This document shows positions 15,757 to 39,518 of a stretch of DNA of 42,129 nucleotides, one piece after another. The notes beneath the pieces were generated by a model. That model saw only the letters and a list, made by a program, of their open reading frames with translations, was not told where the DNA came from and made no database searches. Made by a program: the position numbers and the translations under genes. The DNA is taken from positions 1 to 42,129 of the forward strand of contig CBDUXL010000002.1 of NCBI GenBank assembly GCA_965371155.1, in the 5' to 3' direction. This DNA comes from an uncultured bacterium. GTDB taxonomy: Bacteria; JAJVIF01; JAPKYR01. Within the stretch, counting starts at the first letter, position 1. Each line of letters opens with the position of its first letter.

Positions 15757-16854
15757 TCAACTCTCAAACAACATGTCCGCAATTCGCCAACCCTCTCCGA
15801 CAGCCTCAAGCCCGCCGGCGGTGTCTATTTTGCCGGCTTTGCTGAGCTGCGCAATATGCCCCGAGAAGGTCTGCATACCCTCGGACGCTCCGGCCTGAAT
15901 GATGTTCGGTATCTGCTCCAGTTTGTTCTCTCTGATGAGGTGACGTGCCGCATCGTTTACGATCAGAATCTCACACGCGGGAACTCTCCCTTTGCCGTCC
16001 TTCGTCGGAAGCAGAACCTGGCTGACCACACCCATGAGTGAGAGGGAAAGCTGAACCCGGATGGTCGCGCGACCGCTCGGCTCGAAAGCGTCGATTATCC
16101 GCGCCAGGCTTCCTGCCGCGCCCGAAGTATGGAGCGTGCTGTAGACCAGGTGACCCGTCTCCGCGGCACGCAACACAAGATCGATTGTTTCAAGGTCACG
16201 CATCTCACCGACCAGGAGAATGTTGGGATCCTCGCGGAGGGAATCACGAAGGGCCGATGCAAACGAGCCGGTGTGACGCCCGACCTCGCGTTGCGCCACG
16301 AGGCTGGTAAGCGGCTTGTGGATGAACTCAATCGGCTCCTCTATGGTGATGATGTGGTCGCGTCGGGTTGAATTGATGTGATGAATCAACGCGGCGAGTG
16401 TTGTGGACTTTCCGCTCCCTGCCGGACCGCAGATAATGACCAGGCCGTGCGGGAGATTGGCGAATCTCTTGATGACGGGCGGAAGGTTGAGTTCGGCGAA
16501 GGCGGGCGGGGCGGTGGGGATCCTCCTGAAGCTCGCCGCCAGACCGCCTTCGTGACGGAAGGCGTTCAACCTGAGGCGCATGTCCGGAAGTTGAATGCCG
16601 ACATCGGCGGATCCGCGTTCATCCAGGAGTGCAAGGGCGTCCCTGTCCAGAACCTCAGCCAGTATGGCTTTCAGCGTGTCGGCATCAACCGGCCCGAGGT
16701 CATCCTGCGCAGTCAAACCCGCCACAAGTCGCAGGTACGGAGGGAATCCCTCCTGCAGGTGGAGGTCGCTCGCGTTGGATTCATCCATCCTGCGGACGAG
16801 TTCAAGAAGGAGTTCCTGTCGGGGTGTCTGGTCGTTTGTGAATTCAGAAGGCAT
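15757..16854 (-). CDS. pilT: Type IV pilus retraction ATPase PilT/PilU family
   Basis: ASDLHLQEGFPPYLRL, Walker A GPAGSGKST, Asp box HIITIEEPIEF, Walker B ILLVGEMRD and His box AETGHLVYSTLHT. ATG at 16854 gives about 365 aa. The ORF-track start at 17085 overlaps the upstream gene. Confidence 0.9.
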   Translation of the reverse strand: MPSEFTNDQTPRQELLLELVRRMDESNASDLHLQEGFPPYLRLVAGLTAQDDLGPVDADTLKAILAEVLDRDALALLDERGSADVGIQLPDMRLRLNAFRHEGGLAASFRRIPTAPPAFAELNLPPVIKRFANLPHGLVIICGPAGSGKSTTLAALIHHINSTRRDHIITIEEPIEFIHKPLTSLVAQREVGRHTGSFASALRDSLREDPNILLVGEMRDLETIDLVLRAAETGHLVYSTLHTSGAAGSLARIIDAFEPSGRATIRVQLSLSLMGVVSQVLLPTKDGKGRVPACEILIVNDAARHLIRENKLEQIPNIIQAGASEGMQTFSGHIAQLSKAGKIDTAGGLEAVGEGWRIADMLFES

Positions 16855-16873
16855 AACGTTCAGGGATGAAAAC

Positions 16874-16895
16874 CCCCCGGGTATTGCACCGGGGG
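16874..16895 (-). terminator. GC-rich hairpin followed by GTTTTC just upstream of pilT (attenuator or stabiliser candidate)
   Basis: cccccgg (16874-16880) / 8-nt loop / ccggggg (16889-16895). On the minus strand it is followed by gttttcatcc and then the pilT ATG 19 nt later. Confidence 0.3.
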
Positions 16896-16945
16896 AACTA
16901 GTCAATAGGTTGGATTCACGAAACGTCCCGACTGCAGTTAACGCC

Positions 16946-18085
16946 CTAACGCCCCCTGTGATGCCGGTCCGTGACGCCGTCGTAGTGATGCTCGATAACC
17001 TCGGGCTCAGCGGGTGAATCATCGCCGACCCAGGTGTGAGTGTTCCATCGAATGCTGGCGCGCTCGTACTCATCGTGCCAGCCATGTCGATACGGATTCA
17101 GCCAGTCCGGGCGGTAGACCCACTTGTCGTGGCCAGGTCCGTGGTCGGCCCACATGCCCATGGGGAGCCAATCGGGATGGGAACCGCAAAGGTGCTCCCA
17201 GCTCGGAAGAATCCTGTCGGTCATCTCCCACACGACTTCGCTCTCAACGTCGTAAAGAAGCTCGGACTGGGACTCAAACAGCGGCCATGCCGCATCGTCG
17301 CGGGACTCGGTCGTGCCATTCCAGACCAGATCGCCGGTTTCCCCGTTATACAGGTAATACGCCACCTGCATGGTAACGCGGCGGTCTGGATTGATGAGGC
17401 CGAGGAACGGCGGGAGAAAAGTCCGCCAATCCGCATCGATATCCCGGCTGACCGCGTACTCGTTGACATAACCTCTGATGACCGCATCGGCACCCAGTTC
17501 AGATGCAATCTCCTGGATCAACTCGCCCGGGATATAATAGGTTTTATCGATTCCATAATGGCGCTCGAGGCCCGACACAACTTCCAAATGGAAACTGGTG
17601 GTCCGCTCGGCAAGGTGATCCCGAAAGAAGAGGTTATTGGCAACCGCATCATAGTAGGGGCCGCCCAGCCCAAGCATTTCGGTGAGCAGCGCCTCGGCGT
17701 CAGGCGGAGGGATAATCAGGTAGCCGCGCAGCATGAGTTCCGCGGCGAGGTTATCGAGTATCCTCCTTGGTCCGCCTGAGCTCTCCAGGACGCTTTCCCC
17801 TTGATTGGTGGGAGAAGTCATATCGACGAAGGGGAGGATGGCAATGGTGCGAACGCCTGCCATGTAGTGAATGGCATCCGCATCGAGCGTATACCAGTCC
17901 GTATGGCGCCAGTATTCCCAGGGCTGATTGTACCAACAACACTCCCAGGGTCCGTATTCGGTCGCCGCCTCCTCACCCTGGATTGCCTCGTCCACATCGA
18001 CCCCGCCATCCGCTATGGCGGGAGTCAGTGGGCCAAGGACCAGGAGAACAAGGATTAGTCCGAGTATACTTGGGTAGAATCGCAT
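16946..18085 (-). CDS. Exported protein with an LpoB/CsgG/DUF799-like core and a Trp/His-rich C-terminal tail
   Basis: AGGAG lies 10 nt upstream of ATG 18085. The signal peptide is MRFYPSILGLILVLLVLGPLTPAIA. The core pattern is TIAILPFVDMT...LAAELMLRGYLII...LGADAVIRGYVNEY...ETGDLVWNG. The tail is HPDWLPMGMWADHGPGHDKWVYRPDWLNPYRHGWHDEY...HHYDGVTDRHHRGR. Confidence 0.6.
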   Translation of the reverse strand: MRFYPSILGLILVLLVLGPLTPAIADGGVDVDEAIQGEEAATEYGPWECCWYNQPWEYWRHTDWYTLDADAIHYMAGVRTIAILPFVDMTSPTNQGESVLESSGGPRRILDNLAAELMLRGYLIIPPPDAEALLTEMLGLGGPYYDAVANNLFFRDHLAERTTSFHLEVVSGLERHYGIDKTYYIPGELIQEIASELGADAVIRGYVNEYAVSRDIDADWRTFLPPFLGLINPDRRVTMQVAYYLYNGETGDLVWNGTTESRDDAAWPLFESQSELLYDVESEVVWEMTDRILPSWEHLCGSHPDWLPMGMWADHGPGHDKWVYRPDWLNPYRHGWHDEYERASIRWNTHTWVGDDSPAEPEVIEHHYDGVTDRHHRGR

Positions 18086-18132: not shown

Positions 18133-18744
18133 CTAACCGCCGACTATCACAAGCTCAAGCTCGATGCTAAATGAGAAAGTGAACGTGTCGGAACGACCTT
18201 CTGCGTCCTCAAGCAGGTACCTGAGATTGTATGTGTAGCGCTCTCCTAAATAGTCAAGCACAGGCCTCCCGCCTTCGATATGGTAACCGATCCAGTCCTG
18301 GATTCCTGCCGGCACAGGGTAACACATCCCAAGTGCGAGTCTGGTCGTTCCCTGTGGAGGTTTGCCACTATCACAGACGTAAGTGCCCTGGACACGTTCT
18401 TTCCTGAACTGAGGACCGCCTAACCAGCTATTCGTCACTGATCCAGCGGGGATACCGCCTACGAAGACGGTCTTATTGCGACTCCATGATTCAGTCAATA
18501 TGATGCATGTGAAGTACTGGTTGGTGTGATAAGTCCGAACATCCGCGATTACATCCACACCACTAGGGGGCAGGTTGAGCGTCGGTATCAACGTTGTCAG
18601 ATCGATCGTCAGGACGACCTTCTTGTCCTCCGTCGTCGCCCAGTTAGTGATGGTCGGCCACTTGTCCTGTGGCGTGATTTCGCATCCCACCAGCATCGGG
18701 ACAATTAAGACAATAAGCGCTAGCAATGCGACGTGATATCTCAT
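18133..18744 (-). CDS. Lipoprotein of unknown function immediately downstream of the secretin gene
   Basis: ATG at 18744 has GAGG 7 nt upstream. Signal peptide and lipobox are MRYHVALLALIVLIVPMLVGC. I recognised no family motif. Confidence 0.6.
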   Translation of the reverse strand: MRYHVALLALIVLIVPMLVGCEITPQDKWPTITNWATTEDKKVVLTIDLTTLIPTLNLPPSGVDVIADVRTYHTNQYFTCIILTESWSRNKTVFVGGIPAGSVTNSWLGGPQFRKERVQGTYVCDSGKPPQGTTRLALGMCYPVPAGIQDWIGYHIEGGRPVLDYLGERYTYNLRYLLEDAEGRSDTFTFSFSIELELVIVGG

Positions 18745-18794: not shown

Positions 18795-21700
18795 TCAGTA
18801 TCGTTCCCTCCCTACAGGCAACGGCACATCGAAATCCTCATCAGTCAAGACCTCGGGCAGATGCATAACCGGCTTGATCAGGTGCGGAGTGAACACGAAG
18901 ATCAGCTCACTCTTGACTTTCTGTATTTCCCGGCTACGGAACAGGTGGCCAATCAACGGGAGGTCGCTAAGGAACGGGAAGCGGTCATAGTTGACACGCT
19001 CTTCATCCCGAATAAAGCCACCGATGATAAACGGCTCGCCATCCTGAACCCGGACGGTCGTATTGAAGGACTGGTCAACGGTGCGCGGACCGATGTCGGT
19101 CAACTCGAGAAGGTTCCTGTTTTCAGGGGTAAGGACAATAGTAACCGAATCGTCCGGATTCGCATGGGCAGTGAATCTAAGCGTAAGGCCAAGCTGCTGC
19201 TGGTCAATACGCTGTGTAACCCTGCCGAGATCGCTGACCTGATAGGTCGACCTGTATGGAATCGTCTCCCCCACGCGCAAGCTACCGGTCTGGTTGTTGG
19301 CGACGGTCAGCGTCGAACGGTTCATCAATTCTGCATAGCCTTCTTCGAGCAGGTAGTTGATCGTGTAGTTGATATTCCACTGGTTTGGGCTACCCATAGA
19401 AACGGGCCGGTAGAAGCCCTGCGGCAACGGTCCCGCATTTGGATTGAGGCCAACCTTCTCGAAGAATGTCAACGCCGTCATACCCGTGTTGCCACCGGTT
19501 GATATGTCGAAATCGAATCCGAAGTTCTGGTTGTCGGTTAGCGAGGTGCTGATAATCTGGAAATCGACCTGGATCATCACCGGCGCCTGATCGATAGCCG
19601 CAATCACCCTGTAGGCGCGCTCAAGGTCGCGCTCATCGCCACTCAGAATGACACGTTCTTCTGCGACCTTGACACCACCATAAATGCCGCCTCCACCGCC
19701 AGCGGAGTAGATCTGTATCTGATCGCCGGAAAGGATACCCATTCCGGTGAGGATGCGCCTGACCTGATCGGCAACTGCATAACTCAACCTGATATACCAG
19801 GTCGGCCAGACATCCCTGAATCGAGCCTGCAGATCCTGCGAGTCACCGAAGATGTATACACCATGTCGGACGACATAGGTGAATCCCATATTAGCGCCGA
19901 GCAGGTCGAGCAAGTCGAAGAGCTCTATGTCGGTAAGGCTGATAGTGAGGCTGCCCTGGACTTCAGGGTTGATCATAATATCCAGGCCGGCTCTCTCACC
20001 AATCAACTGTAGAACATCACGAATATTCGCATTATCCAGCCTCATGCTGAGTCTCCGGCTGGGTGCCTCGAGTTCAGATATTATCTCCTGTGTTTCAGCT
20101 TCATCCGGACCAACCACTGGAACGGGTTGAGGCACAACCGGCATAATCTCATACTCAGGAAGCACGAAATCCTCGGCTGCGGGACCGGCGACCTCGGGCG
20201 CGGCCCAGCTTTCAAACGGGCTCTCGCCACCCGCCCCGTACACCGCGATTATCCACTCATCGCCGCGAGCCTGCACATCGAACTCGATGAACTCGGTGGA
20301 CTCTATCGTGTGTGTGTAGATGCTCAGGATGGTGAATGAGGTGTCGAGGCTTGCAGTAGATGTAACCGTCAAGTGATCCATCCATGCACCATCGACAACC
20401 TGTTCGTATCTCTGCGGGTGAGTGCCCGGAAGCGACGGGCGGCTGTTGCGAAGCTTAACCTGAATCTTCGGCGGGAAGTTAACGGGCATCACTTCCCAGT
20501 CTTCCACCAGACCGGTGGCATTCAGCCGCAACACATCCGCGTCGCCCATTCGCTCGAACGAGATTCCGGTGATCAGGACGCCATCGAATGGCTCTTCCCA
20601 TTGGTCGGGTTCATCGACACGAATCTCAACCGTGGCGATTGCCTCAAATTCGGGAACCTCAGGCTCCTCTTCGGTCTGCGCAATGACCGGCTCGCTGATT
20701 ATCTCCGGACCGCTGATTTCCTCGTACACGGCCTCAGTCTCCGGTTCCTCAACCGGCACCGGCTCAAGCGCCTCGGTCTCGTCACTCTCGATCGCGAACT
20801 CGAAGCTCTCATCTTCCTCTGCCGACGGTGCGTCAGCGATGAGTACAGGCTCCTCAATCTCCGATTCCTCCACTACAGCGGTACCCTGTTCTTCGACTAT
20901 CTCTTCCTCGATTTCAGGCTTAGCCTCGACCTCAGGTTCTTCTGCCTCGACTATCTTTTCCTCGATGACCTCAGGCTCCGCGATAGCCTCAACCTTAACC
21001 TCGGCTTCGGCGGTTTCCTCTGTTTCCTCGATTTCAGGCTCAGTTTCGACCGTAGGCTCCTCAACTTCAGCCTCGGGCTTTTCTTCAGTCACAGGCTCTG
21101 CGAGAACCTCGACCTCGACCTCCGTAACCGGAGCCGGCTCCATAGCAACGGTGGTCTCCGGAACAGGCTCCACAGTGACCGTCGGTTCGACGGCAGGCTC
21201 GGTGGGAAGGGGTTCCTCAATTACTTCAGGAAGCGGGATGTATCGGAAAGCCACAAGAAGCTCATTTTCACCATCAGGGACTAATTCCTTCTCGAATTCC
21301 TCAAATGCTCCCTCGAGCGTAAATGTGACCGTGGTGTACTGAGCGTCCTCGGTGTCCTTGACGATCGCGCGCACCAGGGGAATCCTGGAGACGTGAGTAT
21401 GAGCGGTGTAGACACCCGCTTCCTCATCCAGAAGCTCAATCTCGGAGAGCGGAAAACGCAGACCGAGGCGATCCGGATACTTGAAATGAATCACTCCAGG
21501 CTCAGGCATCGGCTCAGAGGCAACTATCCTGAAGCTGATTTCGTCTCCGTCGGCCTTTTCAAGCAAGACCCGAATCGTCGGGAGAGACCCCGGAGAGTCA
21601 AACGGCGGAGCGCCCGGCGCCATGGGGGTGCCGGCATCCTCCGCAATTTCGGGTTCTGTTTCTTCGACAGGCTCAGGGATAGTCTCCTCGACGGCCTCTT

Positions 21701-23717
21701 CAGCAGGCTCTAAGACAGGCTCCGGCTCTTCGGCAAGCTCGGGACCAGGCTCTTCGACAAGCTCAAGACTGGGCTTGATCGGTTCAGCCGGCAGGGGAAC
21801 ATGCTGGAAAGCCAGTGTCATCTCGGTGCCGTTCCAGTCGAGCTCGGTATCGAATTCCTCAAGGCTGCCATCGAGAGTGAACAGGAGTGTGGTGTGCTGC
21901 TCGTCCTCGCGATCCTTGATAATCGCCCTGACACTCGGTACGGCGCGGATCTGGGTGTTGGTTGTGTACACACCCTGACCGGCGTCGAGCAGCTCGACAT
22001 CAGCCAGAGGGAACCGTAAGCCGACTCTGTCGGGATAGTGGTACTCGACCACCTCAGGCATGGGTAACTGCTCTGACGTGGTAATATGGAAAACGACATT
22101 ACCGCCGATTATTTCACCGCCAACCAGGCAAACAGTCGCTCCCTCAGCAACCTCAGGAGCTGGCTCTTCAGCAGGCTTCGGCTCCTCAACAGGCCCGGGA
22201 ACAGGCTCTTCGATTGCTTCCGGAGCCGGTTCCTCAATTGGCTCGACCTCGATATCCTCTGCAGGGACTTCGATGTCCTCTACTTCCACTTCCACCTCTA
22301 TAATTTCCGGCGCTTCGACAAGCTCAGGATGGGACCCATCCTCAAGCTCGGGAATGCTGAGATTGACCTCGATCGGGCTTTCGATATCGATCGGAACTGA
22401 TGTGGCAAAGAAATCGACGTGGAGTTCACCCTCATCGACGTAGTCCAGAGTAAAATCAATATTCTCCCGCGCAGTCTCCGGGAAGTAGAATACAAACTGA
22501 CACTCGGGACCGACATCCTCGATTACTCGGTTGAAGACTTTGAGCTCGGAAGCTACCAGTCCAGCCACAGGCGTCTGGAACCGGTCGCCTGCATCTTCCG
22601 GAAGGACAACTGCAGCGTCGGGGAAGCTGAAAGCGATCCTTGTAGGATAGTTGAGCCGCTGAGGGGTTCGAGCCTCAAGGACTCCGCCTTCGTAATAAAT
22701 ATAGAACCGATCTATGCCGCCATCAATTGTTTGAAATTGGACCCTATGGATTCGGATCGGTGCGTCCGCCGGTGTGGGGATATCGTCGGATGAGGCCAGC
22801 ACCATGATCTGGCTGCCCTCAGTGGGAACGGGAGGCGTCGTATCCGACAGTTCCTCGGCCGGTTGAGGCTCAAGGGATCTCTCATGGAAAAGGATCAGCT
22901 CGAGCGTATCCTCCGAATCGGTCCGGAGCGTATAGCCGAGAATAGAAGTGTCATCAATCGTCAGCCGGACCTCGGTATCCACGCTGCCACTTAGAGCAAG
23001 GCGCTCCGCGCGCATCCTCTCGACAATGTGGCCATCAACACCGGTGGCAAAGTTTGTCGGATCCGATGCGGGGAGGAGTATGTCGGTGCCCGGGAACCTG
23101 AGAAGAATCACTGTGGGACTCTCGATACGAATCTGAGGCAACACGACACCATATGAGAAAACGATAAGGAATCGGTCACGACCGCCCTCAGCTCTCTCGT
23201 GCCAAAGGTCCTCGATGGTCGGGATAGCGTGGTCCGGCGGAAGACCCGGACCAAAATCCACAAGAGGGTTTTCCCCGCGGAACACCGCCAGCTTGAGACC
23301 ATCAGCGGTGTTGGCGCGGGCACAGCCGAGCGTCGGATCATTGACTTCGGCTACTATCCTGACCACGGGAGGCTCAGTGGAGAACTGGGTGATTTCGAGC
23401 GAGGTCACGCCGGTAATCGGCGCTTTCCACACTGTGACGGCTTCCTCATCCAGAACGAGGAGAGAATCCTCGATATCGAAGACCAGCCTGTAAGGGGAGG
23501 TCAGGGTGAACGACCGGATACCCACGGTTCTCGACATGGCGAGGTCGACAATAACAGCACCATCTGTCACTTCGACACTTGCGGACCTCACCTCCGCAGG
23601 CCCGGACGGCTCTTCGGCCCTGAGGGATCCCAGGGACGATATGAGCAACAGGACCAGGAGGAGTAATACGCCTCGTGGTGTTTTGTGTTTGCTCTCGAAC
23701 TGGTGCGCGATTCTCAT
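18795..23717 (-). CDS. pilQ: Giant PilQ-type secretin: six AMIN-like modules, three acidic linkers, N0/N1 domains and a C-terminal secretin domain
   Basis: The C-terminus has the secretin pattern (VMIQVDFQIISTSLTDNQNFGFDF ... GEPFIIGGFIRDEER...FPFLSDLPLIGHLFRS...SELIFVFTPHLI). The N0-like domain is LSMRLDNANIRDVLQLIGERAGLDIMINPEVQGSLTISL. AMIN-like cores are SFTLTSPYRLVFDIEDS, ESPTVILLRFPGTDILLP, LNYPTRIAFSFPDAAVVLP, YHYPDRVGLRFPLADVELL, FKYPDRLGLRFPLSEIELL and VNFPPKIQVKLRNSRPSLP. ATG at 23717 gives the signal peptide MRIAHQFESKHKTPRGVLLLLVLLLISSLGSLRA. Confidence 0.9.
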   Translation of the reverse strand: MRIAHQFESKHKTPRGVLLLLVLLLISSLGSLRAEEPSGPAEVRSASVEVTDGAVIVDLAMSRTVGIRSFTLTSPYRLVFDIEDSLLVLDEEAVTVWKAPITGVTSLEITQFSTEPPVVRIVAEVNDPTLGCARANTADGLKLAVFRGENPLVDFGPGLPPDHAIPTIEDLWHERAEGGRDRFLIVFSYGVVLPQIRIESPTVILLRFPGTDILLPASDPTNFATGVDGHIVERMRAERLALSGSVDTEVRLTIDDTSILGYTLRTDSEDTLELILFHERSLEPQPAEELSDTTPPVPTEGSQIMVLASSDDIPTPADAPIRIHRVQFQTIDGGIDRFYIYYEGGVLEARTPQRLNYPTRIAFSFPDAAVVLPEDAGDRFQTPVAGLVASELKVFNRVIEDVGPECQFVFYFPETARENIDFTLDYVDEGELHVDFFATSVPIDIESPIEVNLSIPELEDGSHPELVEAPEIIEVEVEVEDIEVPAEDIEVEPIEEPAPEAIEEPVPGPVEEPKPAEEPAPEVAEGATVCLVGGEIIGGNVVFHITTSEQLPMPEVVEYHYPDRVGLRFPLADVELLDAGQGVYTTNTQIRAVPSVRAIIKDREDEQHTTLLFTLDGSLEEFDTELDWNGTEMTLAFQHVPLPAEPIKPSLELVEEPGPELAEEPEPVLEPAEEAVEETIPEPVEETEPEIAEDAGTPMAPGAPPFDSPGSLPTIRVLLEKADGDEISFRIVASEPMPEPGVIHFKYPDRLGLRFPLSEIELLDEEAGVYTAHTHVSRIPLVRAIVKDTEDAQYTTVTFTLEGAFEEFEKELVPDGENELLVAFRYIPLPEVIEEPLPTEPAVEPTVTVEPVPETTVAMEPAPVTEVEVEVLAEPVTEEKPEAEVEEPTVETEPEIEETEETAEAEVKVEAIAEPEVIEEKIVEAEEPEVEAKPEIEEEIVEEQGTAVVEESEIEEPVLIADAPSAEEDESFEFAIESDETEALEPVPVEEPETEAVYEEISGPEIISEPVIAQTEEEPEVPEFEAIATVEIRVDEPDQWEEPFDGVLITGISFERMGDADVLRLNATGLVEDWEVMPVNFPPKIQVKLRNSRPSLPGTHPQRYEQVVDGAWMDHLTVTSTASLDTSFTILSIYTHTIESTEFIEFDVQARGDEWIIAVYGAGGESPFESWAAPEVAGPAAEDFVLPEYEIMPVVPQPVPVVGPDEAETQEIISELEAPSRRLSMRLDNANIRDVLQLIGERAGLDIMINPEVQGSLTISLTDIELFDLLDLLGANMGFTYVVRHGVYIFGDSQDLQARFRDVWPTWYIRLSYAVADQVRRILTGMGILSGDQIQIYSAGGGGGIYGGVKVAEERVILSGDERDLERAYRVIAAIDQAPVMIQVDFQIISTSLTDNQNFGFDFDISTGGNTGMTALTFFEKVGLNPNAGPLPQGFYRPVSMGSPNQWNINYTINYLLEEGYAELMNRSTLTVANNQTGSLRVGETIPYRSTYQVSDLGRVTQRIDQQQLGLTLRFTAHANPDDSVTIVLTPENRNLLELTDIGPRTVDQSFNTTVRVQDGEPFIIGGFIRDEERVNYDRFPFLSDLPLIGHLFRSREIQKVKSELIFVFTPHLIKPVMHLPEVLTDEDFDVPLPVGRERY
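20592..21227 (-). repeat. Low-complexity polyacidic (E/P/V/T/A-rich) linker of about 210 aa inside pilQ
   Basis: Residues ~857-1068 of the 1666-aa ORF-track translation, for example EVIEEPLPTEPAVEPTV...EVEEPTVETEPEIEETEETAEAEVKVEAIAEPEVIEEKIVEAEEPEVEAKPEIEEEIVEE. The DNA shows periodic ctc/ttc/ctcgac/ggctc motifs. Confidence 0.85.
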
Positions 23718-32376: not shown

Positions 32377-32868
32377 TCAGTAAATCGCAATCGGCCACAG
32401 CGTATTTGTGTCACGTACGACGCCGTCATTGATGATAAGAAACGTCTTGAGATCGAGACCGCGTTCGATCGGCCAGGCAACGATAGAGTAATTCTGCGGG
32501 TACTCGCCAATATTAATCAATTGTATCGAGTAGCCCTTGATGAAGTAACCGCGCCGTCCCGAAAGTCTGTTATACGCCTTCGCATCAATTGCATCACACC
32601 GCCTCAAGTCGTGCCACTGGTCATGACCGGCGGTGTAGCACTGGTAAACCTGGTAGTACAGCTCCTCCGCCTCAGCCAGTTGTTTGAGACCGTGAACCGC
32701 CCCGGTCTCAAGCGCATTCCGCCTGGCATGCTGGAGGTTGGGAATAGCCATGACGGCCAGAATGCCTATCAGGCCGACAGCGAGCATGATCTCAAGCATC
32801 GTATAACCACGAGCATCCTGATGGTCCTCGGATTCAAGTGGCGTCTTTATTTCCTGCGAATCAGCCAT
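32377..32868 (-). CDS. Type IV pilin-like protein, tandem paralog 9 of 12
   Basis: MADSQEIKTPLESEDHQDARG|YTMLEIMLAVGLIGILAVMAIPNL. Confidence 0.8.
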   Translation of the reverse strand: MADSQEIKTPLESEDHQDARGYTMLEIMLAVGLIGILAVMAIPNLQHARRNALETGAVHGLKQLAEAEELYYQVYQCYTAGHDQWHDLRRCDAIDAKAYNRLSGRRGYFIKGYSIQLINIGEYPQNYSIVAWPIERGLDLKTFLIINDGVVRDTNTLWPIAIY

Positions 32869-32911
32869 GTCGTTCTCGCCGGTCGTTCGGTATCGCCGGC
32901 ACCCGGAGTCG

Positions 32912-33427
32912 TCAGTAGATCGTAACCGGCAGCCCGTTGACTTCCGCGCCCTCCCTGACAGGCGGCATCGCGACCAGCCTGTCGTTGTAGGTGCTTCCCG
33001 TTATGAACTTGTTGATGTTAAAAGTCCGCAGGCCCATTCTATTATAGCCGACGGGGGTCGCGATTACCTGATAGTATAACGAATTCGGAGTGTTTGGAGT
33101 GACAAAAGCCAGCGAGTACCGATCGATGAATGGCAGGACGCTCGCGGAGGTCACAGGGCTGCGGAACTCCCACTTCGTGGAGTAGCCTTTCGGAAGCAAG
33201 TTGGCGTCCACCAATTCCATGAAATCACCAAATCTCTCGTAGTCCGAGTAGAACCGGCTTTCAGCAAGGGCGATACGGTTCAGCCTCTGGATCGCGTTGT
33301 CCTCGAGCGCTGCCCGCCTCGCATGCATGTAAGACGGCAGGGCGAAGCTGGCAATAATGAGAATGATAATGCACACCGAGAGAATCTCGATAATGGTCCA
33401 GCCGTCATTTCTCCCAAGAATACCCAT
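32912..33427 (-). CDS. Type IV pilin-like protein, tandem paralog 10 of 12 (Trp at predicted +1)
   Basis: MGILGRNDG|WTIIEILSVCIIILIIASFALPSY. Confidence 0.75.
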   Translation of the reverse strand: MGILGRNDGWTIIEILSVCIIILIIASFALPSYMHARRAALEDNAIQRLNRIALAESRFYSDYERFGDFMELVDANLLPKGYSTKWEFRSPVTSASVLPFIDRYSLAFVTPNTPNSLYYQVIATPVGYNRMGLRTFNINKFITGSTYNDRLVAMPPVREGAEVNGLPVTIY

Positions 33428-33457
33428 TGACTGTCTATCAGCCTGATATCTCCATTG

Positions 33458-33955
33458 CTAGAATACCGGCCTCCCGGTATCGAGCCATTTCACAACACCG
33501 TCCTCTTCGACCTTCATGCTCCTGAGGCCGGCAATCCCGCCCATAGGGGTCCATCGCGGATACCATAAGTAAGGCTCGTCCACCACCGGCTCCGCAATGA
33601 TCTCAAAACCTCCCCCCTCCTTGTCTTTGTTGAACTCCAATTTGTATTCCAGGATAAACGCCGCTCGTTGGTAATGAAGCCGGTCGTCGTCTTCCAGGAA
33701 ATCCCAATCGACATAGCCTTCTCTCTGAAGGTCGTCGAAGTTCGCATACTCCCCAAGTTCGCGGGAGTACAAGTCCTCCCAGATAGCAAGCTGTGCAAGC
33801 CTCTGGGCGCAGTAATGCTCCTTGGCACGACGCTTGACTTCGAGGTACTGCACGGTGCCGACGGTGACGAGAATCGCCACGATGGTGGCCACGATAAGCA
33901 CCTCCATCAGCGTGTATCCTCTTTCAGACTTGTATCTATTCACTGTGCCTGACAT
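33458..33955 (-). CDS. Type IV pilin-like protein, tandem paralog 11 of 12
   Basis: MSGTVNRYKSERG|YTLMEVLIVATIVAILVTVGTVQY. ATG 33955-33953 overlaps the upstream stop 33957-33955 (TAATG coupling). The ORF-track start is 34012. Confidence 0.8.
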   Translation of the reverse strand: MSGTVNRYKSERGYTLMEVLIVATIVAILVTVGTVQYLEVKRRAKEHYCAQRLAQLAIWEDLYSRELGEYANFDDLQREGYVDWDFLEDDDRLHYQRAAFILEYKLEFNKDKEGGGFEIIAEPVVDEPYLWYPRWTPMGGIAGLRSMKVEEDGVVKWLDTGRPVF

Positions 33956-34500
33956 TATCGCCCTCTCCACGGTCCTAAATCTCCTTCTTGACGCCTGTAC
34001 CACGTCTTCCAATAGACCTCCCCGTCCTCCTGCATATAGAAGGTTCTCAATTCGGGAGTGTGCCTGAGCGGAATCGCCATGATCAGATATTGGAAGGTGT
34101 CCGGCTCCGATTCATCGTCCTTGCTGTTTCGCATGAATTCCAGGCGGTAATATGGGATAAATGCGTTGACCGTATGCCGTCTCTCATCGGACTGCTCGTA
34201 AAAGTCCGGAACCAGGTTGGCATTCTTTAAATCGAAAAACGTGGCGTAGGTGCCCTCCGGATTCAGGGTCGGGTCGTTTGAGAAACGAAAAGTGTGCTCC
34301 AGTCTGGACAACTGTTTCAGTCGCTGCACGCAGGTTTCCTCGATCGCGAACCTCTTTTGGAACTTCATCATCGCCTGAGTAGCCATGACTAGAATGATCA
34401 TAAGTGCGGTGACGCCGAGGATCTCAATCAGCGTGTAACCGGTCTGGGGCCCGCGATCGCGACTTTCAGGAATTTCGTATGTTTCTCGCTCCGTATCCAT
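33955..34500 (-). CDS. Type IV pilin-like protein, tandem paralog 12 of 12
   Basis: MDTERETYEIPESRDRGPQTG|YTLIEILGVTALMIILVMATQAM. Confidence 0.8.
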   Translation of the reverse strand: MDTERETYEIPESRDRGPQTGYTLIEILGVTALMIILVMATQAMMKFQKRFAIEETCVQRLKQLSRLEHTFRFSNDPTLNPEGTYATFFDLKNANLVPDFYEQSDERRHTVNAFIPYYRLEFMRNSKDDESEPDTFQYLIMAIPLRHTPELRTFYMQEDGEVYWKTWYRRQEGDLGPWRGR

Positions 34501-34545: not shown

Positions 34546-35247
34546 TTATTTCCCGAATGATTCCGCCTCCACGTCAGCAAAATCACCAGGCGGAAATTTT
34601 ACCCCGCCGTTGGGGTTACGCAATGTTGCGATGTACTCGCGCTGAACGATCGTGCCTCCCCGCTCGATGCTCAAGGTCATCGAGATTCTCTTAACCTCGG
34701 GAAGCTGATCGGTGAAGTTTCCCTCCGAATCAGCGTAGTCGAACATAAGATTTGCGATACCTGATGTGAGACTGGTGGTGCCCTGCTCCTTAATGGTCCC
34801 ATTCTCTCTCACCACCACCACGGTTCGCATCAAGTAGCTTTCCCTGATGAACGTACCGTACTTTAAGATGAACACGCCGTACCTGACCTTATATCGCACC
34901 CAGATCTCTTCGCCGTCCGGACCCGGATAACCGAGAATAAGGTATAAAGGGTTTGTGGTTTCTCGAAGGACCATCGCACCCGTTTCGTCATGCGTCTCCT
35001 CGTTGTAGAACCAGACAGCGGACTGCACATCGCTGATAAACTGGTTCATTACACACTGGTGACCGAACTGCACGTTTTGGTCATTGGTCATCCTGTTCAA
35101 AGCCCCGAGACCCTCCAGAAGCCCCGCGACAATGCCGGCTGCAATCAATGTGGTCAGTCCGACAACAAGCAGGGTCTCCACCAGAGTGAATCCACGCTCG
35201 CTGAATCCCAGTTTTTCTTGTCCAATATTCATCCTGAATTCTGTCAA
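34546..35247 (-). CDS. Minor pilin-like protein (PilW/GspJ-like, 233 aa)
   Basis: ...EKLGFSERG|FTLVETLLVVGLTTLIAAGIVAGLLEG. The TTG start overlaps the upstream stop (TTGA). Alternative ATG at 35232. Confidence 0.7.
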   Translation of the reverse strand: MTEFRMNIGQEKLGFSERGFTLVETLLVVGLTTLIAAGIVAGLLEGLGALNRMTNDQNVQFGHQCVMNQFISDVQSAVWFYNEETHDETGAMVLRETTNPLYLILGYPGPDGEEIWVRYKVRYGVFILKYGTFIRESYLMRTVVVVRENGTIKEQGTTSLTSGIANLMFDYADSEGNFTDQLPEVKRISMTLSIERGGTIVQREYIATLRNPNGGVKFPPGDFADVEAESFGK

Positions 35248-36824
35248 TCCAAACCTACCCAGCGCACTTCAATCGCGTCTATGGCGAACCCATCGTAACC
35301 GTCATCGTAAGTGTTTCCTGAATCATTAGATTTGAAATGGATCACCAATGTGTCTCCCTGGATCCAGTCGGTCCAGTCACCGTTAATCGGGTACGGGTTT
35401 CCGCCGGCATCCTCCGGCGTTATCGTATCGCCGGGATCGGTGGGAACAGTAACCAAACGTCCCCTGATTTCGCTCGCACCGGGAACGGTAAACGGGAATG
35501 TGAAATCCTCGTTGTCTTCGAAAACAAGGTGTGACGGGAAGTCACGGAGATTAGGTAATCGATCCACCCTTGTCGGAGCGTTGCGATAGAAGCTCGTCTG
35601 GAACCATGCAATCCCGCGATCGTCATCCTGCCACCAGGTTTTTGTCTGCCACTCTTCGGAGCGAGGATTCGGCGCCACAGGGTGGAACTCCAGATCCACC
35701 CGGATAAGGTCTCCATGCCCGAGCCTGACCGACTCCACATCCGGAGCGATGACGTATGTCCGTCTGCCTAGATCGAACCCCGATTCCAGGTAGTTCGGGA
35801 AATACATTATCACGTTATCAAACTCTCCACGCCAGTCCTCGAGGTAGTAGGTCGCCTCGTTATAGCCATAAATCTCGATCTCAGCCACATAGGGCCAATG
35901 ATAATCCTTGTCAAAATCGGCGTAGGTATCGATTTTGTATACGCCGATGATGCCGGCTTCCAGCGGCGCCTCGGGCTTGTCGTAAATCATATGGATCCCG
36001 GATGAAGAATAGCCCAGGTTCTTTCCGAACGCGAGTGGGTTTGCATCCTGGAACCACGGATCGAAGACGTCCCCGACGCCGAGTATTCCGTCGGACCAGA
36101 AGAAATCGAAGTTGCGTTGCCAGATGTCCAGCTCGTGGGGAAGATAGTCGAAATCCTCATCCGGTACACCGAGAATCTCGGTCATGTTGAACCTGTTATC
36201 ATAAAGAATCCGACTGATGTAGGTCAGCTTAGGGAAAGCGCAATAAATGTACTGGTAATCCTTAGGACGGTTGTCTCCACCCCCTTCCGGATCGTCGCTG
36301 GGTCCCCCGGCGCCCGGATCCCCGCCCCCGATTGGGTCGTCTGTCACAGGGCCTTCATCACCACGATAGGCCAGCGCGTTCTCTTTTCCCATCCATCGGC
36401 TGTTCTCGTTGGCGCGCTTCCCATCGAAAGCATGGTGCCTGGAGAACCTGTCTCCAGGAGTGGGGAGATCATACGACGCCCCAACTGTGACGACCCCGTC
36501 GAATTCCGTGCTGATTGCGAGATCGCTGAAATAGTCGGGAACATCCTGAACGTACCCGACTTCGCCAGTCTTGAGGAACGGAACCCGTCCGAACTCGCTC
36601 GCCCGGAGGCTCTCGAACTCCAAACCGGCGAGGTAAACAAGACTGCCCTGATCGATAGCCATGCGGGACGTTATAGTGGAGGTCGAAAGGGCCATCAGGA
36701 ATCCCACCAGGGCTATACCCAGAACAACCGTGGATATAAGCACCTCGAGCAGGCTAATACCCCGCTGGTTGCGGACAGCGTCCAGGAGCCTGAAACCTCG
36801 TTTGTATGTACAAGAATCTGTCAT
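35244..36824 (-). CDS. Large minor pilin-like protein (PilV-like N-terminus, 526 aa) with a C-terminal CUB-like module
   Basis: ...VRNQRG|ISLLEVLISTVVLGIALVGFLMAL. The C-terminus reads GDTLVIHFKSNDSGNTYDDGYDGFAIDAIEVRW. A Gly/Pro/Asp loop GGGDPGAGGPSDDPEGGGD is also present. Confidence 0.7.
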   Translation of the reverse strand: MTDSCTYKRGFRLLDAVRNQRGISLLEVLISTVVLGIALVGFLMALSTSTITSRMAIDQGSLVYLAGLEFESLRASEFGRVPFLKTGEVGYVQDVPDYFSDLAISTEFDGVVTVGASYDLPTPGDRFSRHHAFDGKRANENSRWMGKENALAYRGDEGPVTDDPIGGGDPGAGGPSDDPEGGGDNRPKDYQYIYCAFPKLTYISRILYDNRFNMTEILGVPDEDFDYLPHELDIWQRNFDFFWSDGILGVGDVFDPWFQDANPLAFGKNLGYSSSGIHMIYDKPEAPLEAGIIGVYKIDTYADFDKDYHWPYVAEIEIYGYNEATYYLEDWRGEFDNVIMYFPNYLESGFDLGRRTYVIAPDVESVRLGHGDLIRVDLEFHPVAPNPRSEEWQTKTWWQDDDRGIAWFQTSFYRNAPTRVDRLPNLRDFPSHLVFEDNEDFTFPFTVPGASEIRGRLVTVPTDPGDTITPEDAGGNPYPINGDWTDWIQGDTLVIHFKSNDSGNTYDDGYDGFAIDAIEVRWVGLD

Positions 36825-36842
36825 AAACCAAACTGATCTATC

Positions 36843-39422
36843 TCAATAACCACCCAGATTCCGGAATCGGAATGCCCTGGTTGGGTCGTCGGATCTGTCA
36901 TAGTACTGGTCGTAGGCGAGCATTGCGTATTCTTCGTAGTATTCCTTCACTTGAAGAATGTCGCCGTTGACGTAGCCGCAATGGTTGATCTCGAATCCCG
37001 AATGCCCGGCATTATCATCCCCGTCCCCGATCAGTTTCACCTGAGCGGTTGTACCGGGCACAAGCACCCAGCCGTAAGTGGCGTTCAAATCAATAACTGT
37101 TTCAGGTGAGGTTCCCAACGGATACTCAGGACCTGCAGCGCCCGGTCCGCCCCCGGGCTGCTCGCCTCCGGTGGGGTCATCCGGATTGCCGGGTCCTCCC
37201 ATATCCGGGAAATCGTCGGTGCTATCGGAAACGAGAGTTGCGATCAGGATTCCGTCGATATCATACACCTCGATTCGATCGCCCGGGTCGAGGTCATAAC
37301 TGTAACGGTCGAAATGCAGTCCGACCACCAATGCGTTCTTGTTCGTGTACCACCACTCCGAAGTCTCGAAAGCCTGATCTCCGAAGGCGGGATAGCTCAC
37401 ATTCGACGGGTAGTACACATCCGACCGGATAGTCGGCGGGGTGCTGTCATCATCATGGCCGTCGGATGTTGTGTATTCAATGGCGTCGATTCGATAGCCG
37501 AAGTTCTCGGGGGATACCTCATGGGCATCCTGCGCGTCGGAGATGAACTCGATCTCCAGCCTGTCGAAAATGCCGCAGTCGATAGGGTCGACGGAAAGAG
37601 TCCTGATGTCGCGGTACTGGAGGGGATTTGAAATAATGAACGGCCCCCAGAAACTGTCTTCATGAACATAATTAATTGTGAACCCCGCGATAGTCAGGGA
37701 TATCATGTCATTATTGAGAGGTCCACCGGAGCCGACAGTTAGATTCGTGCACTCGGAGAAGTAGACCTTCCAGTTGGTGAGCGTCCCCAACCCGCTCGGA
37801 TCGGTGGTATCCGGAACCGACGGCTGCCAGATGGTCATATAGCCGCCGATGTTGGTCGTCAGAGGCAAATACAGCGGTCCACCCATGTCAGGGATAGTGT
37901 AGGTGCCGTCGTTGGCGCCGAGAGAGGCAAGGTGCGGGGTCTGCACCAACGGCTGCTCTCTTCTCTGCCAGTTGCCGTTCCTATCGGTGTACTCCATCGC
38001 CTCGATCTTGAACCCGTAGTCGGGGAGGCCATCCGTGTCGAAATTGGCCCCTCTGTGGAGCAGGAGAACAAAGCCCAAGGGGACCGTCGTATCCATGCGA
38101 TTGATTACCGGTGAGAAACCTCCCGGAGGCAGCGGATTTCCAGAGTCGTAAACCTCCACTGCACCCACCCCCATTGGCTCGGAGGCATTGAAAAGGTACA
38201 GCGTGTCGGCAGGATCAAGCGAGCAGAAATCCGAAAACTGGATGGTCATCTGCTGGGCTACAGCCATCGGGGATGCCGGGGCAGCCTGGAACTCGCCGTG
38301 GATGACCATGACGTTCAGGTTGGCGGCAGTGGTGACATCGATTATGTGATCGTAAGGATGCGGAGTCTCATAGTAAGACGGAAAAGCGTCGTAGTCGAAT
38401 TTGTATCTGACGCCGCTCACCCTGAAGCCGTAGTCCAGTCCGTCCGCCGGAGGGGCCGGTCTTGCCGAAAGATATAAGCCGATTGTAGTGGTGAGAAAAT
38501 AATCTGTGAAGACCTCACTAAGTACGTTCTCAAAGCCGCTATGGCTTTGCGGCGGCGGATTCTGGAATTGACCGGCACCAGCAAGCCACGGGGAAATGTA
38601 AAGAGTGTCGCCGCCGTGGATCTGGACCCTACCGATTTTGGCCATCAGAGCGAGATGGGTCAGGTTACGATAAGGATGTCGAGGGTCCTGCTGGTAAGTA
38701 ACCGACCACGCGCGAGCGATGTCGGGCGGGTACGGGTGCTCGGTCTGGATATACGGGTACGGTCCAAGGCGTGACGACTCAGTGATTCCCGCCTCGCGGA
38801 CATCGTAGTTCCATTGCACGTTTGGGTATTCGCCACGAAGGAAACTGAACAACGCGGTATCGCCATCGGGTTCGTCCACCTCGCCTACCCCAAATACCAC
38901 CAGGTCGCCCGTCGATTGCCTCTGAGCGAACTCGTACCCCGGGAAATCCTCACTGAATGTGAGATCATCGTGGTATCGATAAATCGCATTGTCCCTGTCG
39001 CCGGGGACAATATCGGTCTCGGGATAATACGCGCTTATGCTGGTGTCAACGCTGTAAGCCGTTCGGAGCGTTGTAACCGGGAAATCCTCGATTTCTTCCT
39101 CGTAGGATACACCCTCGGTCAGAAGTGTGACTTTCAGCAGGTCCTCGGAAGTGGTGGAGACCTCAAAGGGGTCGATATAACCCGGGGTGATGTACTCCGG
39201 GTCCACCAGGAGGCCGTAAGCGCCCTCATGCATGGCTCCCTCAGCAACCTGGCGGGCGACAAATGAGTGCCGATGTGTGTCGGTGGATTCAAGCGACTTT
39301 ATGCTTACTGCGAGGGTTGTGTAGGCAAGAACGGCGAAGATGCCGGCGATTATGAGCACGACGATCAATACGACCCCTCGTTCACCAGAAATCCTCCTAT
39401 CAAGTTTTACAGGAATCGGCAT
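36843..39422 (-). CDS. Giant PilX/GspK-like minor pilin (about 860 aa, no Glu5) carrying four CUB-like modules
   Basis: MPIPVKLDRRISGERG|VVLIVVLIIAGIFAVLAYTTLAVS, with a hydrophobic N-terminal helix but Val rather than Glu at +5. Module ends are DYGFRVSGVRY, DYGFKIEAMEY, NFGYRIDAIEY and HSGFEINHCGY. Module starts are TEHPYPPD, TPHPYDH and YPSNVSYP. The ORF-track GTG at 39482 lies only about 10 nt from the predicted sigma-54 transcription start, so ATG 39422 is preferred. Confidence 0.7.
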   Translation of the reverse strand: MPIPVKLDRRISGERGVVLIVVLIIAGIFAVLAYTTLAVSIKSLESTDTHRHSFVARQVAEGAMHEGAYGLLVDPEYITPGYIDPFEVSTTSEDLLKVTLLTEGVSYEEEIEDFPVTTLRTAYSVDTSISAYYPETDIVPGDRDNAIYRYHDDLTFSEDFPGYEFAQRQSTGDLVVFGVGEVDEPDGDTALFSFLRGEYPNVQWNYDVREAGITESSRLGPYPYIQTEHPYPPDIARAWSVTYQQDPRHPYRNLTHLALMAKIGRVQIHGGDTLYISPWLAGAGQFQNPPPQSHSGFENVLSEVFTDYFLTTTIGLYLSARPAPPADGLDYGFRVSGVRYKFDYDAFPSYYETPHPYDHIIDVTTAANLNVMVIHGEFQAAPASPMAVAQQMTIQFSDFCSLDPADTLYLFNASEPMGVGAVEVYDSGNPLPPGGFSPVINRMDTTVPLGFVLLLHRGANFDTDGLPDYGFKIEAMEYTDRNGNWQRREQPLVQTPHLASLGANDGTYTIPDMGGPLYLPLTTNIGGYMTIWQPSVPDTTDPSGLGTLTNWKVYFSECTNLTVGSGGPLNNDMISLTIAGFTINYVHEDSFWGPFIISNPLQYRDIRTLSVDPIDCGIFDRLEIEFISDAQDAHEVSPENFGYRIDAIEYTTSDGHDDDSTPPTIRSDVYYPSNVSYPAFGDQAFETSEWWYTNKNALVVGLHFDRYSYDLDPGDRIEVYDIDGILIATLVSDSTDDFPDMGGPGNPDDPTGGEQPGGGPGAAGPEYPLGTSPETVIDLNATYGWVLVPGTTAQVKLIGDGDDNAGHSGFEINHCGYVNGDILQVKEYYEEYAMLAYDQYYDRSDDPTRAFRFRNLGGY

Positions 39423-39502
39423 GCTCAATCTTGCCTCACGGTTCCGAGGGGCGCGAAGATGCAGCACCTTCCGCCGCTCCACGATGGAACCAGGTCGAAA
39501 AG

Positions 39503-39518
39503 TGCAATTACTATGCCA
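39503..39518 (-). promoter_or_regulatory. Sigma-54 (-24/-12) type promoter upstream of the pilus operon
   Basis: The minus strand reads TGGCAT-AGTAA-TTGCA, against the consensus TGGCAC-N5-TTGCW. It is intergenic, with a predicted start near 39492, 70 nt upstream of ATG 39422. Confidence 0.6.

Follow-up and report, generated by a model that had tools for sequence, protein, structure and literature searches.

A fixed array of fifteen pilin-like genes beside pilM and a giant AMIN-bearing secretin gene: a probable type IVa-type pilus locus in an uncultured bacterium

In what follows, I describe a block of genes at positions 15757-39482 of a 42,129-nucleotide contig from an uncultured bacterium (CBDUXL010000002.1, assembly GCA_965371155.1; this whole stretch of DNA is called the window below), which probably supplies a type IVa-type pilus with its filament, alignment, outer-membrane and retraction parts. 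The block had first been picked out in a reading made without database searches (hereafter the sequence-only reading), and all the open reading frames (ORFs) that it had listed were found again at their places, every one of them on the minus strand. Together they encode 15 pilin-like proteins, PilM, PilN, proteins at the PilO and PilP positions, a secretin, two exported proteins and a PilT-family ATPase. The features are given here in the direction of transcription, a slash in a motif marking the prepilin cleavage point.

39503..39518, minus: sigma-54-type -24/-12 element TGGCATAGTAATTGCA (TGGCAT-N5-TTGCA), about 80 nt upstream of ATG 39422
36843..39422, minus: giant minor pilin at the PilX/GspK position, 859 aa from ATG 39422, or 879 aa from GTG 39482
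35244..36824, minus: 526-aa modular pilin, G/ISLLE with Glu5 present, about 480 extra residues
34546..35247, minus: 233-aa pilin-like protein, G/FTLVE; probable start an internal ATG, leader MNIGQEKLGFSERG
27848..34500, minus: array of 12 small pilin genes, p01 to p12, recognised by motifs, Pfam and orthology
33955-34500, minus: p01, small pilin
33458-33955, minus: p02, small pilin
32912-33427, minus: p03, small pilin
32377-32868, minus: p04, small pilin
31812-32348, minus: p05, small pilin
31260-31754, minus: p06, small pilin
30710-31222, minus: p07, small pilin
30164-30649, minus: p08, small pilin
29632-30132, minus: p09, small pilin
29097-29543, minus: p10, candidate major pilin
28491-29075, minus: p11, small pilin
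27848-28468, minus: p12, small pilin
27694..27722, minus: sigma-70-like promoter TTGACA-17-TATTGT, in the 290-nt gap before pilM
26343..27560, minus: PilM, 405 aa, PF11104 at 66 bits (gathering score 27)
25763..26350, minus: PilN, 195 aa, N-terminal LINLLP and one transmembrane segment
24896..25732, minus: PilO-position protein, 278 aa, N-terminal transmembrane segment and predicted coiled coil
23846..24817, minus: PilP-position protein, 323 aa, transmembrane anchor, acidic linker and C-terminal beta domain resembling GspC-HR/PilP
18795..23717, minus: giant secretin, 1640 aa from ATG 23717, with signal peptide, six AMIN-type modules, N0/N1 and secretin domain
18133..18744, minus: predicted lipoprotein, 203 aa, lipobox LVGC, directly downstream of the secretin
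16946..18085, minus: exported protein, 379 aa, conserved AILPF.D motif, syntenic in all loci
16873..16896, minus: terminator-like GC-rich hairpin and T-run, between the gene for the 379-aa protein and pilT
15757..16854, minus: PilT-family ATPase, 365 aa, true start ATG 16854

The profile libraries used were Pfam, NCBIfam/TIGRFAM with their curated cut-offs, and Rfam, the last of which gave no matches in the window. All 15 pilin-like proteins carry the cleavage motif with glycine at position -1 and a hydrophobic helix, and 14 of them have Glu5, which is missing solely in the largest; Pfam N_methyl reaches its gathering score in nine, matches below threshold in three and gives no match in the other three, and TIGR02532 is above its cut-off in most of them. 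With these class III pilin motifs, a PilM, an AMIN-bearing secretin and a PilT-family ATPase all found, the core claim of the sequence-only reading, a machine derived from type IV pili, is supported. The profile searches of the block ORFs likewise agree with its statement that a PilY1-type propeller is missing (no PilY1 or PilC-propeller match in any of them), and no pilin reaches the cut-off of any of the FimU, PilV, PilW or PilX families, so that the core minor-pilin set of a type IVa pilus (T4aP) is not recovered. Neither Pfam nor NCBIfam matched TadZ/CpaE, TadB/C, an RcpA-type secretin or Flp/T4b pilins among the block ORFs, nor GspC, GspL, GspM, GspE or GspF. The combination had been called unlike the layouts of T4aP, T4b/Tad, Com or the type II secretion system (T2SS), and this too holds, with T2SS, T4b and Tad markers absent and no characterised system that matches; the contiguity of pilin and pilMNOPQ genes, taken by itself, is weak evidence of novelty.

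About 20 metagenomic contigs or metagenome-assembled genomes (MAGs) carry the whole layout, those with a label being called 'Planctomycetota bacterium', and 10 loci came out of a scan of 185,579 species-representative genomes, five of them labelled 'Planctomycetota bacterium' and the others 'bacterium'. The shared order opens with a UbiA gene and one for a 496-aa protein, followed by the giant pilin; two further pilins (about 550 and about 220 aa) and the 12 pilins then lead on to PilM. After PilM come three proteins (about 200, 280 and 330 aa), the secretin and two more proteins (about 205 and 390 aa), and the order closes with PilT, a glycosyltransferase and, on the opposite strand, a 447-aa gene. 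PilM homologs (n=51) fall into three tiers of identity, 69-84%, about 55% and 45-50%, and the next match beyond these is 21% identical; even in the last tier, the loci L017 and L018 (45-48% identity) keep their first three proteins (884, about 545 and 221 aa), the 12 pilins, PilM, the three small proteins, a secretin of 1549 or 1558 aa and both downstream genes. Among 5.8 billion protein clusters, 24 homologs of the giant PilX/GspK-like protein were found, all of them from metagenomes or MAGs, and an exhaustive search of 1.84 billion representatives with its hidden Markov model gave 13 proteins at E<=1e-10, all remaining matches being confined to the N-terminal helix (about 80 residues). For the secretin there are 16 full-length homologs of 1475-1763 aa, these too from metagenomes or MAGs, after which the next match is a Desulfobacterales PilQ at 74 bits. 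None of the homologs of the giant pilin and the secretin places the layout in a named or studied organism, and no account of a Planctomycetes system of this kind was found in the literature. The gene order that the sequence-only reading proposed to look for in public genomes is therefore there, down to 45-48% PilM identity, and what that reading would have taken as the end of its claim, the same layout in an already characterised system, did not turn up. To judge from these comparisons, the system is real and old, not a one-off of one contig.

In mature form the 12 small pilins are 134-184 aa long, and all of them carry G/[FYW][TS][LMI]xE, with phenylalanine, tyrosine or tryptophan at position +1 as in T4a pilins. 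When only the globular parts are compared, the best match of each is the pilin at the same ordinal position in four other loci (125-217 bits), as against 20-60 bits for the best paralog, and ortholog identity is 55-82% against a mean paralog identity of 28%; the collinear mapping extends to L017 and L018, except at p08, the counterpart of which has a slightly better score with p10 than with p08 itself. Since the ortholog scores so far exceed the paralog scores, the 12 pilins are ancient paralogs, each individually kept by selection in a fixed order, and an assembly artefact, a recent tandem duplication or a variation cassette can be ruled out as the origin of the array. The count of twelve paralogs in the sequence-only reading was thus correct, and each has a 1:1 positional ortholog in every locus examined. 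I also considered, and set aside, assigning small pilins to FimU, PilV, PilW, PilE or GspH/I/J, as such matches are limited to the shared N-terminal helix and NCBIfam assigned none of the 12 to a specific pilin family. The sole break in the collinearity of the pilin array is in L017, where a 197-aa non-pilin gene with an N-terminal signal-like sequence (L017 5803-6396) is inserted between the counterparts of p06 and p07.

Among these proteins, p10 is likely the major pilin, a choice suggested by its N-terminus, size, spacer and Shine-Dalgarno sequence. It is the smallest pilin (mature 134 aa), with the leader MLRCLKNEERDSLG followed by a canonical FTLVEVLVVASIIGILAAIAIP with G14 and P22; its first 28 aa are the most conserved among the pilins (96%), and the GspG/PilA-type N-terminal scores are highest for it. 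Its upstream spacer is the longest in each locus, and its GGAGG Shine-Dalgarno sequence is the best of the array. Pro22, which is typical of polymerising pilins, is found in p03-p06 as well as in p10. Directly 5' of the p10 GGAGG lies a CCCGG-N8-12-CCGGG inverted repeat, present in 7 loci (window 29544-29632, minus strand), which could be a hairpin for mRNA stabilisation or processing or a palindrome to which a protein binds; its sequence is conserved without compensatory changes and I make no structural claim for it as RNA.

At the head of the block, the giant pilin had been described as an 879-aa PilX/GspK-like protein without Glu5, and of this description the missing Glu5 and a weak N-terminal GspK match (E 0.0034) hold, while the length is more probably 859 aa, from ATG 39422, the start that a public collection uses for the ORF. 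Its N-terminus, ERG/VVLIVVLIIAGIF, offers a class III-like G/VVLIVV followed by the hydrophobic helix, and NCBI names one homolog 'PilX N-terminal domain-containing'. Beyond the helix, the 14 members of the family have no Pfam family and no significant match in a profile search of PDB sequences, and no relatives of the body were found outside the lineage among the 1.84 billion representatives. The body holds four repeats, each ending in [DN][YF]G[FY]xI, and a structural model of the 859-aa protein has a helix at residues 13-72 and then mostly beta modules, some with a predicted local distance difference test (pLDDT) score of 75-88 in a model whose overall pLDDT of 57 is low; Foldseek matches to it are weak (template modelling (TM) score <=0.26). 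A CUB-like reading of the four repeats, based on an HPYP...DYGFxI pattern read by eye, is kept as a hint only, and the CUB-containing chains returned by Foldseek (enteropeptidase, C1r/C1s, MASP-2) were not accepted as support, with a TM score of <=0.26 on a model of pLDDT 57 and Pfam CUB in 0 of 14 members.

The next two genes encode the 526-aa pilin, with an N_methyl score of 24 bits (above the gathering score) and orthologs of 522-570 aa at the same position in all loci, and the 233-aa protein, with a sub-threshold N_methyl match and orthologs of 218-226 aa. An exact look-up of the 526-aa product gave no record, and NCBIfam gave no specific minor-pilin family for the 233-aa protein. The names PilV (526 aa) and PilW/GspJ (233 aa), which found no significant support in the profile searches, are provisional ones that stand for positions. 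The 859- and 526-aa proteins fit the concept of modular pilins, where the pilin module at the N-terminus carries added modules, and their grafted modules belong to no Pfam or NCBIfam family.

Downstream of the pilins, the T4aP pairing of PilM with a PilN bearing INLLP is present. The L-x-N-L-L-P motif is invariant in five divergent PilN orthologs, and the Pfam PilN match of the 195-aa protein reaches E 0.15 only; an N-terminal INLLP is the PilM-binding signature of PilN, and from this motif the protein would be expected to bind PilM here as well. Profile searches of PDB sequences with PilN and the PilO- and PilP-position proteins returned no significant match. The pilM-N-O-P series of the sequence-only reading is thus secured for PilM (by PF11104) and PilN (by INLLP), and not for PilO and PilP, which have no significant profile match and whose labels are provisional ones taken from position and single-transmembrane topology. 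Its further claim that the envelope-spanning parts are all enlarged is true of the secretin (1640 aa) and fails for PilN, which is of ordinary size at 195 aa.

The secretin is a divergent PilQ-type member, combining a secretin domain (residues 1484-1641; PF00263 at 120 bits) with N0 and N1 domains (1253-1405; N0 and Secretin_N matches weak) and AMIN (33.7 bits). Ahead of these domains lie six modules of about 120 aa each, at roughly 36-152, 160-288, 315-447, 525-645, 710-835 and 1040-1165, and the linkers in the first 1250 residues contain 19-37% Asp+Glu and 12-24% Pro, the longest being 212 residues. By the Pfam AMIN profile (PF11741) module 1 passes (E 1.5e-6), module 2 is marginal (E 0.064) and modules 3-6 do not pass, and profile searches of PDB sequences with modules 4/5 and 2/3/6 gave no significant match. 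Alignment with hhalign relates modules 2, 3 and 6 at 89-97% probability and modules 4 and 5 at 100%, with weak links between these groups and to module 1. An AlphaFold2 model of residues 30-660, built with 16 homologs (mean pLDDT 72), has four all-beta modules of pLDDT 75-90 with the same strand pattern, and its best Foldseek match in the PDB is Myxococcus xanthus PilQ (3jc8_Qa; E 7e-5, probability 1.0, 403 aligned columns), followed by E. coli AmiC (4bin), the Neisseria PilQ B2 domain (4aqz; TM 0.62 on target) and 4av2; the matches to PilQ and to AmiC AMIN domains have Foldseek probabilities of 0.99-1.0. The six AMIN-like modules that the sequence-only reading had discerned are borne out in this way, modules 1-4 by model and Foldseek, modules 5 and 6 by hhalign homology only. 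In the PilQ proteins studied so far there are up to three AMIN domains, which bind septal or polar peptidoglycan and position the machine (PMC10653833).

Of the two orphan exported proteins noted earlier, both are present and conserved, and profile searches assigned a family to neither. The 203-aa lipoprotein, syntenic in all loci and with G20 and C21 invariant in five orthologs, has no Pfam or NCBIfam match; for the 379-aa protein the sole match is a weak FlgT_M (E 0.13), and a profile search of PDB sequences was without significant match. A pilotin-like or secretin-associated role for the two would be a guess from their position. The ATPase at the end of the block, there as predicted, scores 389 bits against TIGR01420 (PilT/PilU family; cut-off 319) and carries a Walker A GSGKST and an ARHLIRE that resembles the PilT AIRNLIRE.

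The sequence-only reading had placed a sigma-54-type promoter ahead of the giant pilin gene, and TGGCATAGTAATTGCA is indeed the sole sigma-54-like match in its intergenic region. With 4 such patterns observed in the window and 2.4 expected by chance, a single match means little alone; TGGCAT-N5-TTGCA, though, stands at the equivalent site ahead of the orthologous gene in 10 of the 11 other loci (L012 being a variant and L011 having none), and this conserved placement is good comparative evidence for what would be a genuine RpoN promoter. In Myxococcus and Pseudomonas, pilA is sigma-54-dependent, a likeness to the pilin promoter of the window. The promoter before pilM is conserved as TTGAC-N17-TAgTATTGT in five core-clade loci, and downstream of it, in the pilM 5' leader (window 27561-27700, minus strand), the same number of loci share a conserved GGGTAAACGTTTTTATTT element. 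Given this pilM promoter and the hairpin before pilT, what had been taken for one block is at least two, and probably three, transcription units.

Because the parts that can be classified are of T4aP type and the markers of T2SS, T4b and Tad are absent, I read the block as part of what is most likely a retractile type IVa-type pilus; that its core derives from type IV pili survived every test run, and its composition matches no characterised system, a combination that I regard as supported. The sigma-54 promoter would drive one long pilin operon, from the 859-, 526- and 233-aa proteins through the 12 small pilins. The oversized pilins, probably with some of the small ones, might form a priming and tip complex, capped by the Glu5-less 859-aa protein, whose beta-rich repeats would replace PilY1 in its role of plug or adhesin, and beneath this complex p10 would be polymerised as the main shaft subunit. 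The separately promoted pilM-N-O-P-secretin unit would build the conduit through the envelope, the six AMIN modules on their long acidic linkers anchoring and positioning the secretin on peptidoglycan, and PilT would retract the fibre in vivo, with adhesion or motility as the presumed output; the extension ATPase PilB, the platform protein PilC and the prepilin peptidase PilD would be encoded elsewhere. Minor pilins and PilY1 serve as priming complex, tip complex and cork in the studied machines (PMC7541494), modular pilins are widespread and displayed at pilus tips (PMC8179133), and for cyanobacteria it has been suggested that an enlarged PilX takes the place of the PilY1 plug (bioRxiv 10.64898/2026.02.12.705559).

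Several results weigh against the type IVa-type reading. Matches to PilB, PilC and PilD are missing from all ORFs of the window, here identical with the entire 42-kb contig, and from about 280 kb of related loci, and a second T2SSE-type ATPase is likewise missing from both; assembly by a T4aP motor is therefore an assumption and the block is not a complete, self-contained machine. T4aP genes are usually spread over several loci (PMC6668835), so motor genes that lie elsewhere are normal. The pilT gene, adjacent in the core-clade loci, is not at this position in L017 and L018 and is unlinked in the deeper relatives. PilM falls short of TIGR01175 (119.9 bits, cut-off 133), as does the secretin of TIGR02515 PilQ (125 bits, cut-off 284); the PilO-position protein has as its sole homology trace a non-significant one to M. 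xanthus PilO (3jc8_Oa, E 0.55), and the PilP-position protein a non-significant T2SSC match (E 0.06, residues 253-297). The short leader of T4a pilins was not found either, the pilin leaders being probably about 9-22 aa (p04 20, p06 22, p10 14, from inferred starts) and so apparently longer than the classical one of under about 10 aa. A tip or adhesin role for the 859-aa protein is suggested by analogy, next to a low-confidence model and weak fold matches, and the reading gives no reason for keeping 12 distinct small pilins.

It is on this last point that another account departs from it, in which several of the 12 pilins act as alternative major pilins, shaft parts or priming sets of more than one filament or of a heteropolymer, for possible uses in adhesion, DNA uptake and motility. 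It overlaps with the type IVa-type reading and differs from it solely in denying a single major pilin, and I hold it to be possible, if doubtful. In Thermus, two pilus types are made from different pilins. Cyanobacteria offer the further precedent of two specialised filaments primed by distinct minor-pilin sets (bioRxiv 10.64898/2026.02.12.705559), and S. sanguinis pili are heteropolymers of two major pilins (PMC8179133); in the window and its relatives, 12 anciently diverged pilins are each conserved 1:1 in fixed order, p10 shares Pro22 with p03-p06, and all 12 are of major-pilin size. Against several filaments, there is one Glu5-less cap and one set of large pilins, hence one obvious priming set, a single sigma-54 promoter apparently drives all 15 genes with no obvious switch, and p10 is distinct from the other pilins in several respects. 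A more specific version, to which I give little credence, is that the 12 small pilins are obligate, non-redundant blocks of a compositionally ordered filament capped by two giant modular pilins, which may take the form of a long multi-subunit tip or stalk segment or of a heteropolymeric shaft; if true, this would be a type IV architecture without precedent among the homopolymer-plus-tip pili studied. To such a filament the flanking pair of genes, for a UbiA-type phosphoribosyltransferase and a polytopic membrane protein, might possibly add pentofuranose glycosylation.

That the pilins instead form a short piston, expelling substrates through the giant secretin as in a T2SS or a periplasmic pseudopilus, seems to me very unlikely. 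The GspG or GspH matches that come out best at the N-termini of several small pilins, and the weak GspK match of the first gene, invite this idea, and so do the failure to find PilY1 in the block and the JGI annotation of one secretin homolog as GspD/PulD; the GspG/H/J/K matches, however, are limited to the shared N-terminal helix and lie far below the cut-offs, GspC, L, M, E and F were not found in the block, the secretin bears AMIN modules, which are missing from T2SS secretins (PMC10653833), and PilM and an INLLP-bearing PilN are present, with a PilT-family retraction ATPase adjacent in the core clade. There is also just the slenderest chance that the pilin genes belong to a number of unrelated type IV filament systems and only happen to lie beside pilMNOPQ, the second outcome that the sequence-only reading had named as fatal to its claim. 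Separate promoters for the pilins and pilMNOPQ, motor genes elsewhere and the common scattering of T4aP genes (PMC6668835) would suit such a juxtaposition, but in all loci examined, including those at 45-48% PilM identity, the genes keep one intact order, from the giant pilin through the 12 pilins down to the two that follow the secretin, and the giant-pilin and giant-secretin families share the same narrow distribution; collinearity across so deep a divergence argues against it.

Returning to the type IVa-type reading, one known system close to the block is the T4aP machine of M. xanthus, with PilA, PilBTCMNOPQ, TsaP and three clusters that each have FimU, PilV, PilW, PilX and PilY1. The two have in common the PilM-N-O-P-Q order, a PilT-family ATPase, several AMIN domains in the secretin, a large number of minor pilins (M. 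xanthus has 12), large ones among them, and the priming, tip and cork model (PMC7541494), and M. xanthus PilQ (3jc8_Qa) is the best structural match of the N-terminus of the window secretin. The M. xanthus minor pilins, however, form three redundant sets of four, each with a PilY1, whereas the window has one collinear non-redundant array of 12 small and 3 large pilins without PilY1; the M. xanthus secretin has three AMIN domains in 901 aa (PMC10653833), as against six modules in about 1500-1760 aa in the lineage of the window, where the PilP-position protein is transmembrane-anchored (323 aa) and the pilin leaders are longer. Sequence similarity is marginal, the best matches outside the lineage reaching 74 bits for the secretin and 21% identity for PilM.

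With the minor-pilin sets of Synechocystis the block shares a large pilin repertoire, the lack of a PilY1-type propeller and an enlarged pilin at the PilX position; there, the proposals are that a PilX beta-solenoid substitutes for the PilY1 plug and that different pilin sets specialise filaments (bioRxiv 10.64898/2026.02.12.705559), which makes the cyanobacterial enlarged PilX the closest functional precedent for the giant pilin. The cyanobacterial pilins are spread over several operons with two priming sets, in contrast to a single array and one cap protein here, the repeated modules of the 859-aa protein are beta-sandwich-like in its low-confidence model where PilX carries a beta-solenoid domain, and the search of 1.84 billion representatives detected no sequence homology between the two. 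The modular pilins on record, such as S. sanguinis PilB/PilC, CofB of enterotoxigenic Escherichia coli (ETEC), Thermus ComZ and T2SS GspK, combine a pilin module with bulky grafts, are predicted to lie at the tip and reach about 860 aa (PMC8179133); unlike them, the window has two giants side by side, with grafts that match nothing in Pfam, NCBIfam or PDB sequences. GspK lacks Glu5, as does the 859-aa protein, and its alpha-domain is not seen in the 859-aa model. The T2SS pseudopilus (GspG with the tip GspH-I-J-K) similarly has a Glu5-less K-type cap and other minor pilins, and the small pilins of the window are GspG-like in their F/Y-T-L-x-E N-terminus (here the slash separates alternatives), but the genes run in reverse order, starting with the K-like one, the pilin-like proteins number 15 as compared to 5, and PilM, PilN, PilT and an AMIN-bearing secretin are present where GspC/L/M/E/F were not found.

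A type IV pilus is usually pictured with one major pilin, PilY1 and four or five minor pilins. Machines of this kind are already known, and the block is a variant of the familiar type IV pilus and not a new class; what is new is the fixed 15-gene pilin array, the pair of giant modular pilins that lie next to each other and have no homologs outside the lineage, the lack of PilY1, a secretin of 1500-1760 aa with six AMIN modules and the long pilin leaders. This layout will surprise a pilus specialist and is well supported by comparative data. As 15 pilin-like genes remain in the same order down to 45-48% PilM identity, each is presumably needed, and the system becomes a test case for how many distinct subunits fit in a type IV filament or priming complex, for whether enlarged minor pilins can replace PilY1, and for the effect of extra AMIN modules on the placement of the machine or its periplasmic span. 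It also adds two protein families without detectable relatives elsewhere, the giant PilX-like pilin body and the six-AMIN secretin, and provides a first look at surface appendages in an uncultured lineage of anoxic sediments.

Directly upstream of the pilus promoter (39902-42085 region, minus strand) lies a UbiA-family gene, cut by the end of the window, whose truncated protein has decaprenyl-phosphate phosphoribosyltransferase as its best NCBIfam match (143 bits), and beside it a second gene encodes a polytopic membrane protein of 497 aa, which has at least 7 transmembrane-like segments and matches 'putative glycosyltransferase' weakly; both genes are syntenic in the core clade. Their pairing recalls the donor-plus-GT-C logic behind TfpW pilin arabinosylation (bioRxiv 10.1101/2020.04.19.049825) and also the three-component systems that add pentofuranoses (PMC11127046), and by this analogy a pentofuranose glycosylation of pilins or envelope is possible. 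On the other side, downstream of pilT, there is a GT4-type, TuaH-like glycosyltransferase (14476-15663, minus strand; 70 bits) and a 445-aa protein (13091-14428, plus strand) with an HEVGH zinc-protease-like motif and no family match in Pfam or NCBIfam, both genes being syntenic with the pilus block in core-clade loci. An 896-aa predicted lipoprotein further along (10243-12933, minus strand) has a beta-propeller of PQQ/BamB type (Beta-prop_ACSF4, 148 bits); for that reason, and as it is not syntenic in the relatives, it was ruled out as a substitute for PilY1. Over the stretch 578-9735 (minus strand), which makes up the rest of the contig, the translations read as ordinary metabolic genes: ORFs like chorismate synthase and shikimate dehydrogenase, a set like a four-subunit 2-oxoacid:ferredoxin oxidoreductase, and Cys-rich Fe-S proteins similar to heterodisulfide or fumarate reductases. 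The related locus L015 has a ferredoxin/POR gene set at the corresponding place, and this content is consistent with an anaerobic lifestyle.

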